Positions 6,884 through 64,000 of a stretch of 64,000 bases of DNA are shown piece after piece. The position numbers were made by a program, and so were the translations under genes. Position 1 is the first letter of the stretch. Every line of letters starts with the position of its first letter. Source of the stretch: Eledone cirrhosa (Eukaryota); the NCBI GenBank assembly GCA_964016885.1, contig CAXHJY010001618.1, forward strand, positions 1 to 64,000, written 5' to 3'. Below the pieces are notes generated by a model that saw only the letters and a list, made by a program, of their open reading frames with translations, made no database searches and was not told the origin of the DNA.

Positions 6884-6963
6884 CTCCAACTAATTAGTTT
6901 CTGAAAGGGGATATACATAGTCTTCAAATGGAGACCATGGAGAATCCTTTCTTCATCAGGGAG
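6884..6963 (-). ncRNA. Minimal type-I hammerhead ribozyme (element A, inverted copy)
   Basis: Minus strand reads ctcc-CTGATGA-a-gaaagg...cctttc-a-GAAAC-taatta-GTT-ggag. Confidence 0.75.
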
Positions 6964-7181
6964 ACATTCTCGGCTAAGATTCATGACAATACGCGGACAC
7001 TCCTCACTGATTAACCTCGATGTCACGTGATTGATTCTTTTGAATTTGCCACTGACCACGAAGGCAGTGAAATTTTCAATGTCTTGGAATTTAGTCCACG
7101 CTTGCTTTTTTCCATCCACTGAATTATATTTGTATGAGTTCCCTGTGTCCGCATATTGCCAGGAATCTTAGCCGAGAATGT

Positions 7182-7261
7182 CTACCTGATGAAGAAAGGA
7201 TTCTCCATGGTCTCCATTTGAAGTCTATGTATATCCCCTTTCAGAAACTAATTAGTTGGAG
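7182..7261 (+). ncRNA. Minimal type-I hammerhead ribozyme (element A, copy 1)
   Basis: CTGATGA 7186-7192, GAAAC 7244-7248, palindrome AACTAATTAGTT, cleavage triplet GTT 7255-7257. Stem I has one mismatch. Confidence 0.7.
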
Positions 7262-7708
7262 TGAAATTTAAGTAAGTAGGTAATTATTATAATTTTCTTA
7301 TTTCACGTCTTTTATATAATTGTTCTACATCTTTTTGTATTGAACCACAAAGTTACTAAGACAAAACCTATATCTTTGCTAGCGTAAGTATACATCTGTA
7401 TAAATATGTTGCTAGATATACTAATTCTTTATAAGTATCTCCAAATTATTTTGTTGAGCAAAAATTTGCCTGAATTAATACTATGGTTCATAGTATTAGT
7501 TTGGCTACTCTCTTTTTAACACCCCACTCCTCACTGATTAACCTCGATGTCACGTGATTGATTCTTTTGAATTTGCCACTGATCACGAAGGCAGTGAAAT
7601 TTTCAATGACTTGGAATTTAGTCCGCGCTTGCTCTTTTCCATCCACTGAATTATTTTTGTATGAGTTCCCTGTGTCCGCGTATTGCCAGGAATCTTAGCC
7701 GAGAATGT

Positions 7709-7788
7709 CTCCCTGATGAAGAAAGGATTCTCCATGGTCTCCATTTATAGACTATGTATATCCCCTTTCAGAAACTAATTAGTTGGAG
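7709..7788 (+). ncRNA. Minimal type-I hammerhead ribozyme (element A, copy 2)
   Basis: Stem I ctcc/ggag, CTGATGA 7713-7719, extended stem II (gaaagg/cctttc and catggtct/agactatg), GAAAC 7771, GTT 7782-7784. Confidence 0.8.
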
Positions 7789-7863
7789 TGAAATTTAAGT
7801 AAGTAAGTTAATTACTATAATTTTCTTATTTTACGTCTTTTATATATATATATATATATATAT

Positions 7864-8465
7864 ATACAAAATTAAAATTAAGGGTGTCATGTCCGAGACA
7901 TGCGCCATATCCACCGTAGAATAAGCTCAAAGATTCCAACGAATAGATCCGAGCATTTTATATCAACTAGAAATTGATTGACATATGATGGATATGGCGC
8001 ATGTCTCGGACATGACTCCCTTAATTTTAATTTTGGATATATATAAGGCCCCTTAATTGTAGAGCTAACTCAGTTGAAAAGACTGGGCTGCTATTTTTAG
8101 CTGTCGATAATCCTATTCACGCCACTGGGATGACGCTGGTACGATGTGTGTAGTTTTTAAAATGTAACACGTGCGACGGGTCATTCGCAGATTTGCATTT
8201 GATGTGTAAACACAGATAGTTAAACGTTCTCCCTTGCTGAAGATACGATATTTGACTACTGTGAGTTTACGGATTAATGGTGAAATATATTTATTTAATG
8301 AAATATGTACAAGGAAGATTAATCACTTTAAAGTTCTAGTTAAACTTTAAATAGTTACCTACCTAGCTGTGTGTGCTTACACACTTTACAAATTATCCCC
8401 TGTGATTGTTTCATGTGTTTATTTTATATATATATATATATGTCAATCAATTTCTAGTTGATATA
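7864..8465 (+). mobile_element. Non-coding HHR-bearing element C (reconstructed circular unit of about 520 nt) with a 5' inverted segment
   Basis: 7866-7913 is inverted against 7989-8036, and 7959-7986 against 8438-8465. Flanked by (TA)n. Confidence 0.7.
8228..8318 (+). ncRNA. Minimal type-I hammerhead ribozyme (element C)
   Basis: Stem I tctcccttg/caaggaaga (8 of 9 pairs), CTGAAGA 8237-8243, GAAA-tat-GTA 8300-8309. Stem II is long and poorly defined. Confidence 0.65.
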
Positions 8466-9580
8466 TATATATATATATATATATATATATATATATATAT
8501 ATATATATATATATACCTTGAGCTACTATATTTAATACTCAGCATAAATTTAGGAACAGTAGTAACACGGTTTTTAAATTGATTAAAAAAGGTTTGGATT
8601 TGTTAGTAGCAGTGTAATTTAAACATATATGAAATTAAGCAAATGTATGATTTAGATGTGTTAGACTGATAATAACACAGTAGATGCGTCGCTTTATGGT
8701 CTACTGAATAACGATTAGAGTGAATGAAATTACATCGTTTGTGTGGTTTGCTCTAGTTTTATACAGATGATATAGGATAAATATTGTACAAGGCTGGAAT
8801 AAGAAAGTTTTGGACTTAAATAGTTGAAACTATACAAAATGATATACCTATTCTATGAAAGGGTCATAGGCTATGTAAAAATTGTTCCTTTATTATGCAC
8901 ATTGTATATCATCTCACGAATAATAATAATAGACATTGGAAAACGTTACTGATAAGGGAAATATATAATTTACTGTAATTCAATTAGCAAAGTATATTGG
9001 AAACAAAGACATATTTTCCGATGTAAAAGAAACCATTGAGTTTAGATTCTACATTTATATCTTTATTCCAATCTTGGGTGATTTGAAAGCAACAAAGTTG
9101 AAGGAAGCAACAGTCGGGACTAACTGAACATAGTCAGCAATATTTTAAGCAGTTATACAACACAGAAAATTCAGGCGATTATATTTTAAATAGGTACAAC
9201 AGTCGTTGCTAAAACCGAGTATAGCTGGTAGTAGACATGCATAGAATATATTTTTGTGTGTGTATGGGCGGGCACGTATTAATGATATATCGCTGAACAA
9301 GTTCATGCTCATATATATATATATATATATATATACAAACACAAGAAGGTGTAGGAATGAACAAAGGAGAGACACAAAATAAGAAATCAGTCACTGGGGA
9401 GGTCATAGAATGTGTGACGAAAGAGCTTTGACATTATATAAACAACCGTCCGGTTATTGAACCAACCAACCGGAAATTTATAATAAATTGAAGTGACAAC
9501 CAACAGGCGCGTGCGTTTTTATTGGCAGCATCACTATCATAACTATATATATATATATATACATACATACATATATATAT

Positions 9581-61485: not shown

Positions 61486-62104
61486 GTATTTTTTGAAGAA
61501 TATAAACATGTATGAATAAGTGGCAGTGGCATCAACAATGGAAGACATTGGCAGTGGTGGAAAGCCATTTTCGGCATCTGCATGAGATATTAAGTTTTGG
61601 TTGCATTTGCTGTTATTGTTACTAAAACTACGGGGGCTGTTGCTCTTAGTGTTGTTGTTATTGTTGCTGTTATTGCTGCTGCTATCATTGTTTTCTTAAT
61701 GTTGCCTATTCCTCTTCTTGGACAACTGGCCATTCCATTTAGCGGACACAAAGTTTTTGTCCACCATGTTAATTTCCACTAAACACCGAAGGGCGTGTTT
61801 CATAAACAAACACGTATTTATCCCCTGATGTCTATAGGGTGAGCTAAACTAACCGGCTCACAAAGATACTGGTTAGTTTGACTACACAAGAGTCACAAAA
61901 GTTAAGTAATCATGTGTGTAAAGAGAGAGAGAAATAATATATATTTATTACACCAGTATACTACCACAATTAATTACATTTAACTAGAATCTGTTACCAA
62001 TAAATACAATTTGTGTCGACAAATACCACTAGTAATTCTCTTGAAATCTATTTTTTGCCTCTGTATATGAATATGTATATGTGTACATGTATATATATAT
62101 GAGT

Positions 62105-62390
62105 GAAGGCGCATGGCTTAGTGGTTAGAGCAATAGGCTTGCAATCGAAAGGTTGTGAGTTCAATTCTCGGACCGGGTGATGTGTTGTTTCCTTGAGCAA
62201 GACACTTCATTTCACGTTGTTTCACTTTACTCAGCTGAAAATGAGTACCAGCAATAGCTGGAGGTTTAACCCTGCGAAGGACTGGCGTCCTGTCCAGGGG
62301 GCAGTCTTGTACACTCAGTCGCTTCACGTCATGAAACCTGAATAAGCACCGGCCAAAATGAGACTTCTGGCTTAAGACAGACTTTAGACT
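62105..62390 (+). mobile_element. tRNA-derived SINE with CORE-like and Meta/V-like segments
   Basis: A-box tggcttagtggttag, B-box gagttcaattc, ccttgagcaagacac, cctgcgaaggactggcgtcctgtccaggggg. Confidence 0.75.
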
Positions 62391-62506
62391 TATGGCCTAT
62401 CCGCCCAGCCAGTGGGATGGCGTCATCGTATGGCTAAAGCAGCAACGTGCTGTGACCAACGTGCTGTGACGCCCGACAGACTGGTGGGTCAAAGTGATCA
62501 AGGTGA

Positions 62507-62950
62507 TATATATGAATTTCGTATTTCTAAAGACATACGGTATGTTTATAAATAAACATTTACAAAGCCATAGCTATGAATAGCACACTGGCAGCTAACG
62601 CCACCAGGCGGTACCCGGCAGAAGCAAAGGGGACAATGCTTTTCGTACTCAACATGTTGTCGTCAGGACGATCTGCCCCGCTATTGCAACTGCCGAACTT
62701 TGAAAACGTTTTTTCGTCTGTGTAAATGTCATATATATTCCGTTCCCTTGTCGCTTCAATTTAGGATTACCTCATGATTGTAACACCTTATTATGTAAGA
62801 AGCTGTCTGATGAGAATGGCACTAGTTACTACACGGAATCACGTGGCCACTGTATCATCTAAACTACTTTGTATTTCCTTATTCTAAAAATACTCCGCCA
62901 TTCCGATATGGATCAATGTACGTTGTGTTCTTGATTTGAATTACATCAAT
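62507..62950 (+). mobile_element. PLE-type 3' fragment with degenerate HHR
   Basis: CTGATGA 62807-62813, stem II gaatggc/gccattc, GATA in place of GAAA at 62905; ends at (TA)n. Confidence 0.45.
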
Positions 62951-63014
62951 ATATATATATATATATATATATATATATATATATATATATATGTGTGTGT
63001 GTGTGTGTGTGTGT

Positions 63015-63195
63015 GTGTGTAAAGAGGGAGAGAAATAATATATATTTATTACACCAGTATACTACCACAATTAATTACATTTAACTAGAATCTGTTACCA
63101 ATAAATACAATCTTTGTCGACATATAAACTAGTAATTGTCTTGAAATCTATTTTTTTGCCTCTGTATATGAATATGTATATGTGTACATATATAT
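63015..63195 (+). repeat. ~185-bp direct duplication of 61912-62100
   Basis: Seen directly. Confidence 0.85.
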
Positions 63196-63912
63196 ACCTC
63201 TATACGTACACATACACACGCACACACACACATCACACACACATACATATATATATATATATATATATATACATACACAAACACACACACATATATATAT
63301 ATATATATATATATATATACGTATACACGCCTACATACACAATCATACACATACACACACACTCATATATATAGTACGAAACATCGATAGATTTAAAGCC
63401 AGAGGCACAAAAGTCAACGCAATTTTCCGATGTTGCTTTATATAAACTGCTCAACAGAAGCTATGCCACGTGGGTGGATAATTCACCTCGAAGCATATCA
63501 TATACTTTTTCATAGGAAAGTGGAACCAATATTGAACAAACGGGGGGATAACTATCAAAGAACTTTAAGCATTCTAACTGTTAAATCAAGAAAGATTTGC
63601 GATTCTTACACTTCCATCACCCTTAGAAAATATTTTGGTTGACCAAAATACTTAGGTTTCGACTTCCTAAAAAATATGACAGACACCAGTATTGAAAATT
63701 GATTTTTGCAAAATTTTTCTAGTTTTAACAGGTTTTGTTAAGCCTACATAGAGGCATCTTTTGCGACAGCTATCGACCGTTAACTGACAAGGAAAGGGCT
63801 ATCAGTGTGTTTGGCTGAAGGATGCTAAATATATCGTCAGCTTCCCAGCCAAACTAAAGCAACTTGCCTGACCAAGTTATATATATATATATATATATAT
63901 ATATATATATAT

Positions 63913-64000
63913 AGTATTACAAAACGAAAAATCAGTGATGCTTCTGGACTCAGTTTATTGTGTGTTACAATTGTTTCGCCGGCAGGTAGCTCGAGACATG
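63913..64000 (-). mobile_element. PLE-type terminus with HHR 3' half, cut by the window edge
   Basis: Minus strand gccggc-GAAAC-aatt-GTA-acaca; palindrome ACAATTGT; abuts (TA)n. Confidence 0.6.

Follow-up and report, generated by a model that had tools for sequence, protein, structure and literature searches.

We analyzed a 64,000-nt stretch of the Eledone cirrhosa genome (NCBI GenBank assembly GCA_964016885.1, contig CAXHJY010001618.1, positions 1 to 64,000; hereafter the window) and found ~15 families of hammerhead ribozyme within it. Some of these lie at the 3′ ends of Penelope-like elements (PLEs), which encode a reverse transcriptase (RT) joined to a GIY-YIG nuclease, and others recur in tandem units that lack a long open reading frame (ORF), as in retrozymes. 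The window is rich in TA, CA, and AAT microsatellites. Its hammerhead-related features are given below, where core denotes the position of a hammerhead core, and short and long ends are the two fixed 3′ ends considered later.

6707–7846: family B, predicted retrozyme with a 529-bp non-coding unit, head-to-head; minus arm (6707–7000) with the long end, plus arm (7000–7846, 1.6 units) with the short end; cores at 6959 (minus), 7186 (plus, first unit, stem I damaged), and 7713 (plus); 51-nt helix II
7867–8462: family F, predicted retrozyme with a ~542-bp non-coding unit in head-to-head arrangement; a long end and a short end; core at 8237 (plus)
9583–9760: fold-back stub of the U3-A8 family; hammerhead 3′ half only; short end left, long end right
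11116–11841: family A, predicted retrozyme with a ~430-bp non-coding unit, head-to-head; cores at 11241 (minus) and 11602 (plus, U16.1C)
12085–12171: U3-A8 family stub carrying a minus-strand 3′ half
26530–27100: predicted retrozyme with a hammerhead in S-G-C order, 632-bp non-coding unit, head-to-head; one long and one short end; cores at 26596 (minus) and 27078 (plus)
27198–27635: 3′ end of family C, head-to-head, with both a short and a long end; cores at 27309 (minus) and 27430 (plus)
37164–37348, plus strand: family D stub; core at 37214; 61-nt helix II
37416–39335, plus strand: 5′-truncated copy of a young autonomous Hydra-clade PLE; RT thumb, CxCX5C linker, GIY-YIG (one frameshift), and 1-kb 3′ untranslated region (UTR)
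39271, plus strand: hammerhead core of the 37416–39335 PLE; U4A family-wide; short end into (TA)n
40815–40885, minus strand: minimal-hammerhead family, upstream fragment; lacks the true core, CTGAAGA at 40867 being a look-alike
41209–41288: tail-only stub of the U3-A8 family
41470–43420, plus strand: second, decayed Hydra-like PLE remnant; GIY-YIG at 41535–41820; 1.4-kb AT-rich 3′ UTR; core at 43228 with copy-specific G12U
50990–51075, plus strand: small fold-back with a candidate half motif, GAAA-stem III-UC; no homologue in the fetched loci
53004–53216: fold-back stub of family G, with the long end on the left and the short end on the right; cores at 53136 (minus) and 53151 (plus)
55283–55346, minus strand: hammerhead 3′ half of the U3-A8 family
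59651–60282, minus strand: family A, 1.5 tandem units; core at 59902
60333–60990, minus strand: third Hydra-like PLE remnant; coding 60980–60613; core at 60398 with copy-specific G12C
61141–61520, minus strand: family E, the 3′ end of another autonomous Hydra-like PLE; core at 61471; helix II of ~100–115 nt; predicted cut before 61341
62760–62950, plus strand: degenerate hammerhead copy; core at 62807; hammerhead 3′ half deleted
63913–64000, minus strand: hammerhead 3′ half, cut by the window end; the family has homologues elsewhere

The hammerheads in the window are real. Using a type I descriptor that demanded the exact core (CUGANGA, GAAA, and UH) and a stem I of at least 4 bp, we obtained seven matches; 60 local dinucleotide shuffles of the 64-kb stretch averaged 0.02, and none (0/60) reached seven. 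Relaxed settings gave 6–11 matches in the window vs. 0–0.85 in the shuffles, so that the shuffle-controlled search proposed by the initial annotation returned a density far above that of shuffled sequence; the folds themselves are borne out by this excess and by helix covariation. Rfam gave no match in the window at gathering thresholds, and there was no hammerhead family among the 150 of 336 matches listed from an Rfam E-value search. Type I cores with three helices are present, with the variants U4A and U3-A8 in two families, and helix III is mostly a short palindrome, a mark of hammerheads thought to act as dimers in the account of Cervera and de la Pena (2014, PMC4209133). The fold is 94% paired across 14 diverged B-superfamily members, compared with 31–54% in slid controls, and 13 cells are altered on both sides, a value matched by 0/500 shuffles; the second pair of helix II occurs as AU, UA, GC, and CG. 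Helix III is invariant in this superfamily, the only one in which type I covariation was checked. Since the helices covary, the fold has been under selection. Generic scans for U3-A8, U4A, and other core variants showed no excess over shuffles in a 600-kb genome sample (described below), and these variants were recognized through family alignments alone. Self-cleavage of these hammerheads is predicted, with cut sites expected, for example, before 7785, 11210, 27482, and 39312.

The individual sites largely, but not entirely, agreed with the initial annotation. Of its 13 complete or near-complete folds, 12 form with at most one core change (site 11596 has U16.1C, and site 61328 has a 111-nt helix II), and 7182 fails the stem I test by one substitution. 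Degeneracy was confirmed at 43220 and 60364, with copy-specific changes of G12, and at 62801, which lost its 3′ half, but not at 39265, where U4A is family-wide rather than decay (CAGAAGA in 53/56 cores of that family). Among the supposed half motifs, 9630, 12103, and 55300 are indeed 3′ halves, all of the U3-A8 family, and 63966 is a 3′ half at the window end; no homologue of 40764 or 51040 was present among the fetched loci. Two others had been misread: 40861 is a chance CTGAAGA within a hammerhead-family fragment whose homologues read CTAAAGA or similar, and 27078 belongs to a complete S-G-C-order hammerhead with a previously unlisted inverted copy at 26596. Stems I and III of this fold covary (nine cells altered on both sides, 0/500 shuffles); a direct stem II is not evident and a bridged form is 85% paired. 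Covariation did not support the bridged helix, being no better than in shuffles. Fuller copies of the 9630/12103/55300 family carry the U3-A8 core, which is kept in only 6/54 matches across the fetched loci; most copies of this family and of family G, the matches of the latter having been selected by a short query, break off within the hammerhead or shortly ahead of it, as though its helices had stalled reverse transcription. The claim that families share no similarity outside the core was partly true, but 27430 and 43228 have the stem I/III context in common and most families share a tail hairpin.

The window is typical of the genome in its hammerhead content (7 per 64 kb) and not special. 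We sampled 60 stretches of 10 kb (600 kb) at even steps over 19 contigs of the 3.0-Gb assembly, with 38 stretches from the four largest contigs and 22 from the others, and two positions shifted by 0.5 Mb off earlier matches. The sample held 85 exact-core folds in 27/60 stretches, vs. 0–1 in each of six shuffles, and 89 matches in 23–24 sequence families when helix II was allowed up to 130 nt. The density of one per 7 kb corresponds to ~4.2 × 10^5 genome-wide (bootstrap 95% range 2.5–6.5 × 10^5), or 2.9 × 10^5 with arrays capped at three per stretch, in keeping with the very high ribozyme numbers that had been expected; the estimate exceeds the axolotl count of 126,247, although the descriptors differ. 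The proposed enrichment beside (TA)n was also found: a (TA)4 tract lies within 200 nt downstream of the element's last hammerhead in 42/54 cases, vs. 23% of random positions and 30% within hammerhead-bearing stretches. Tracts are enriched upstream too (within 200 nt of 46/85 hammerheads) because the elements nest in the same tracts. At three sampled loci (L098, L120, and L121), a family E relative has a helix II of 115 nt that is paired over nearly its whole length.

The presence of autonomous PLEs that target (TA)n, another part of the initial annotation, is supported by many intact ORFs. The copy at 37416–39335 belongs to a young family, 94–97% identical, in which 42 of the 64 best matches (96–98% identical) keep a 713-codon frame free of stops. 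This autonomous family is inserted in (TA)n and has a pseudo-long terminal repeat (pseudo-LTR) with a tail. Translation of one locus (L221) gave a single ORF with an RT followed by a C-terminal GIY-YIG without CCHH, and its DKT, CxCX5C linker, and CxxC and CxH in the nuclease are motifs of the Hydra clade, with RWR where that clade has RWK. Pfam gave no match to the PLE protein, and a homologue search with it retrieved 1187 relatives, nearly all unnamed. A Naiad identity for the coding remnants was rejected, as their nuclease lies after the RT thumb and is not an N-terminal GIY-YIG. Two further coding remnants were found by tblastn upstream of 43228 and 60398, confirming that all three in the window have a hammerhead in the 3′ direction, and Hydra-like coding sequence lies upstream in 5/10 homologues of 61471. 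The 39271, 43228, 60398, and 61471 families are 3′ UTR stubs of autonomous Hydra PLEs and not separate non-coding families. No parent ORF was found in the homologous loci of families C, D, and G, and those of family C reach at least 1.4 kb upstream without an ORF being seen. A fold-back stub at 50680–50842 consists of the tail alone of a 43228-like family, without a hammerhead.

A second class consists of head-to-tail units without a long ORF: families A (~430 bp), B (529 bp), F (~542 bp), and S-G-C (632 bp), together with families of 310 and 556 bp that came from the random sample. Each unit carries one hammerhead, of type I architecture in A, B, F, and 310 and of S-G-C order in the 632-bp unit, and the longest ATG frame is 27–70 codons in A, B, F, 310, and 556. 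In their organization, all six are retrozymes as defined by Cervera and de la Pena (2020, PMC7229834) and Li, Clavereau and Pollet (2026, bioRxiv 10.64898/2026.07.22.740005). No ORF was found upstream of families A, B, F, 310, or S-G-C. Predicted circular folds of B, 310, B556, and F lie 3.9–4.4 standard deviations below those of 12 shuffles. The 310-bp and S-G-C units are young (97–100% identical).

These protein-free units share the insertion footprint of the autonomous PLE. Every family examined has two fixed 3′ ends except A, in which one was seen: the autonomous family ends 63 or 151 nt from the anchor and, in unit coordinates, the ends lie at 319 or 434 in family B and at 170 or 187–203 in the 310-bp family. 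In head-to-head loci, a short end is joined with a long end in 15/15 autonomous cases (called by script, with a few loci unclassified), in 20/20 of the 310-bp family, and in 19/20 of family B, where 18 were called by script, one mis-parsed locus was re-read by eye, and three broken-end loci were excluded, of 40. Single-arm loci use both ends about equally (10 short and 7 long in B, 2 and 2 in the 310-bp family), and therefore about half of the pairs would be expected to match by chance; the 39/40 in the two retrozyme families corresponds to p ~4 × 10^−11 at p = 0.5. Families C (13/14) and E (5/5), read by eye and biased toward long ends, agree. One-sided tails and two internal start sites are described for autonomous PLEs (Arkhipova et al., 2013, PMC3846280; Frangieh et al., 2024, PMC11167929), and the observance of the same pairing rule by protein-free units directly links them to PLE machinery. 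We consider it highly probable that such machinery mobilizes the non-coding units, and likely, with slightly less assurance, that one RNA is primed from both ends. Self-priming on an antisense template has been proposed for head-to-head Penelope copies (PMC3846280), and many junctions here are palindromic, but neither this process nor DNA transposons resembling miniature inverted-repeat transposable elements would suit outer ends that differ by a fixed tail and arms that vary independently in length and can both be multi-unit, and we regard such an origin of the fold-backs as most improbable. A shared tail hairpin, RYTC..GARY, begins 8–25 nt into the tail stretch in 9/13 families, vs. 0.7 expected from shuffles. 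It takes the forms GCTC/GAGC, ACTC/GAGT, and GTTC/GAAC, occurs in the non-coding families B and F and in three autonomous ones, and was present outside the set limits in two more families.

The composition of individual arrays bears on the template. Among 106 full units of the 310-bp family, two units from one locus differ by 0.43 nt on average, units from its opposite arms by 0.42, and units from different loci by 5.85; four loci (L119, L204, L250, and L251) have private variants in all units. The arms are 0.2–14.2 units long, with both exceeding one unit in 12/20 loci, and their 5′ ends are scattered round the unit, with 2/44 within 5 nt of the cut site, as by chance. Locus-fixed haplotypes, multi-unit arms, and the lack of a stop at the cut site fit a circular template, a single uncut monomer copied over and over, and we somewhat favor a circular monomer as the usual template. 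A purely DNA-level history is hard to reconcile with these arrays. Non-coding repeats might be decayed pseudo-LTRs that grew into minisatellites by slippage or unequal exchange without RNA movement, a route proposed for vertebrate retrozymes (bioRxiv 10.64898/2026.07.22.740005), and old arrays do look mosaic, while several window families are PLE 3′ ends; but young arrays lie on many chromosomes, their 3′ ends are fixed in (TA)n and their 5′ ends random, and they have two inverted arms of several units each; the want of an upstream ORF in five families tells against such descent. We therefore hold this origin to be very improbable.

The best explanation, to which we assign a probability of roughly 70%, is that a Penelope enzyme nicks the TA tract and primes from both DNA ends inside one bound RNA, for small units a predicted circle. 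The suggestion that autonomous (TA)n PLEs mobilize small ribozyme RNAs is accordingly upheld, as non-coding tandem families end in (TA)n with the two-site pattern of the autonomous element; we infer mobilization in trans, cleavage, and circles. Tandem copies would be transcribed, and hammerheads with a palindromic helix III would cut as dimers, unit-length RNA then being ligated to a circle, as coral, mussel, and axolotl data suggest. The RT-GIY-YIG protein, probably a dimer, may bind near the short tail hairpin. Each nicked strand would prime at either of two sites, 20–200 nt downstream of the cut site, where the observed ends lie and show TA microhomology of a few bases; each cDNA would then circle the template for 0.2–14 units, the span of the observed arms, before the two are joined head to head. 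One-ended priming would give plain 5′-truncated copies, and most genomic motifs would be stubs from early abortion. PLE protein in vitro is reported to nick and extend both strands and to start at two internal sites (PMC11167929).

Several observations weigh against this explanation, and some of them suit a different template. Cleavage and circles are themselves predictions from sequence. In the in vitro work of PMC11167929, insertion did not need the PLE hammerhead and mainly used uncut RNA as substrate. The commonest young autonomous family has a fixed U4A (53/56), so that cutting may be slow or unneeded there. Four 310-bp loci share an identical master haplotype and therefore do not discriminate between models, three have a variant common to non-adjacent units, and older arrays are heterogeneous, with 129 variable columns among 11 units of a 13-unit B array and 27 in a 556-bp array. 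Assembly polishing could have flattened unit differences, though singletons are retained. Circular folding of the S-G-C unit does not exceed expectation (z −0.6), one family B locus has two long ends, and a BLAST comparison of the non-coding units with six Hydra-bearing loci gave no similarity except adjacent family A copies. With the same enzyme and two sites, the template could instead be a long uncut read-through transcript of an array, cleavage and circles playing no part in insertion. The dispensable hammerhead, the fixed U4A, and the mosaic arrays would all accord with this, as would the uncut hammerhead kept in inserted copies and the absence of reads ending at the cut site in the anole study, as reported in PMC11167929. 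Such a template is nevertheless unlikely in our estimation: locus-private variants in every unit of both arms need a one-unit bottleneck, a multimer would offer each site repeatedly yet two-armed copies use each once (39/40), and covarying helices indicate a fold under selection.

The hairpin evidence has its own limits, as the pattern was defined by eye on the same tails, making the expectation optimistic, and the 310-bp and S-G-C units lack it. For the latter two families, the mobilizing element might be a PLE of a different clade that targets (TA)n, Naiad or Neptune for instance, and not Hydra, which would be compatible with priming of one RNA by a Penelope enzyme. A (TA)n preference is also reported for cephalopod Naiads, two of which carry the flag HHR_half_core in the supplement of Craig et al. 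(2021, PMC8557442); however, the same paper calls cephalopod Naiads long inactive, whereas the 632- and 310-bp units are young, and we view this alternative as doubtful, albeit less so than the read-through template.

The remainder of the window contains repeats of other kinds. Near-perfect minisatellites of 153 bp (1579–3705) and 57/111 bp (4810–5614) lie near the contig start, and ~ten fragments of one SINE-like (short interspersed nuclear element) repeat without a hammerhead are found at 10134–10200, 11957–12062, 14268–15375, and 46574–47047. What we take to be a mariner transposase fragment occupies 12180–12800 on the minus strand. A Helitron-like coding remnant (PF14214; 15347–18027, plus strand) is broken near 17860 by a minus-strand retroelement remnant; the broken non-LTR retrotransposon frames at 17859–20171 (minus strand) have no Pfam match, and their C-terminal part resembles a restriction-like nuclease. 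Two related L1/Tx1-like elements, 70–77% identical, lie on the plus strand at 21557–26105 and 30013–35469, the second with Pfam matches to AP endonuclease, RT, and zf-RVT. A further repeat occurs in three copies (28579–28986, 53312–53598, and 53697–54109; 94–97% identical), and a 390-bp segment is duplicated at 58124–58513 and 61519–61908 (95% identity), with no other copy among 40 candidates scored. The minus-strand 164-codon frame at 49526–50020 resembles a pogo/Tigger N-terminus.

Earlier publications cover the element classes, the tail, and the pair of start sites. The autonomous PLEs resemble the Hydra clade, including Hydra-1_Obim, as described in PMC8557442, in the C-terminal GIY-YIG without CCHH, DKT, CxCX5C linker, CxxC and CxH in the nuclease, (TA)n target, and hammerhead near the 3′ end. 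Relative to that description they differ in RWR for RWK, a unit of 3.26 kb rather than <3 kb, very high copy number with many intact ORFs, a U4A core in one family, and a ~100-nt helix II in another. The non-coding units resemble animal non-LTR retrozymes in the accounts of PMC7229834 and bioRxiv 10.64898/2026.07.22.740005 in their head-to-tail arrangement, single hammerhead per unit, low GC, and co-occurrence with PLEs, and their sizes fall in the reported range of 51–972 bp. In those accounts we found no description of the two fixed 3′ ends, (TA)n target, two-armed insertions, and locus-fixed haplotypes seen here, and one of our units carries an S-G-C hammerhead. The papers on PLE initiation (PMC11167929, PMC3846280) describe nicking and extension of both target strands by a predicted dimer, two internal starts that define an optional tail, and a tail on one inverted end, all of which agrees with our loci; relative to the PLEs described there, the tail here is 26–115 nt, start sites have short TA microhomology, and the pairing of one short with one long end is counted and extended to protein-free elements.

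The hammerheads likewise have precedents. The minimal PLE hammerheads of PMC4209133, in which circles were already proposed as templates for more-than-unit copies, share the palindromic helix III, an extra base after A9, the U3-A8 variant, and many heterogeneous families per genome, but by that description differ from ours, in which helix II is often 30–115 nt, usually with an extra base on both sides of its base. The S-G-C unit follows the order of type-SGC hammerheads (cleavage site, GAAA, CUGANGA; Eckert et al., 2023, PMC10085705), with stems I and III covarying; in contrast to the environmental RNA of that report, it lies in an animal tandem repeat, is predicted from sequence, and has no evident direct stem II. 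A literature search, outside whose reach most subscription journals lay, did not find the scale seen here, the pairing rule in protein-free elements, the tail hairpin, a fixed U4A, or an animal S-G-C repeat; the papers listed included none on hammerhead numbers in a cephalopod, none joining "twin priming" with retrozymes, and none mentioning U4A.

We tentatively put forward a more far-reaching proposal, to which we give somewhat less than an even chance: a dimeric Hydra-clade enzyme would recognize the shared tail hairpin and copy one RNA circle by rolling from both ends of a cut TA tract, once per fixed site, thereby building both the tandem and inverted forms of Penelope and the retrozyme arrays. 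This genome would then hold several hundred thousand ribozymes, above the published counts found, including a working non-circularly permuted animal hammerhead. E. cirrhosa offers a young enzyme that is intact, protein-free passengers that are very young, exact positions at which priming is predicted, and a hairpin that is a candidate for recognition; with these in hand, the identity of the enzyme that moves animal retrozymes and the origin of the tandem and inverted Penelope pieces become testable in vitro. It also provides a large pool of natural hammerhead variants missed by Rfam, with long helix II, U4A, U3-A8, and S-G-C order.

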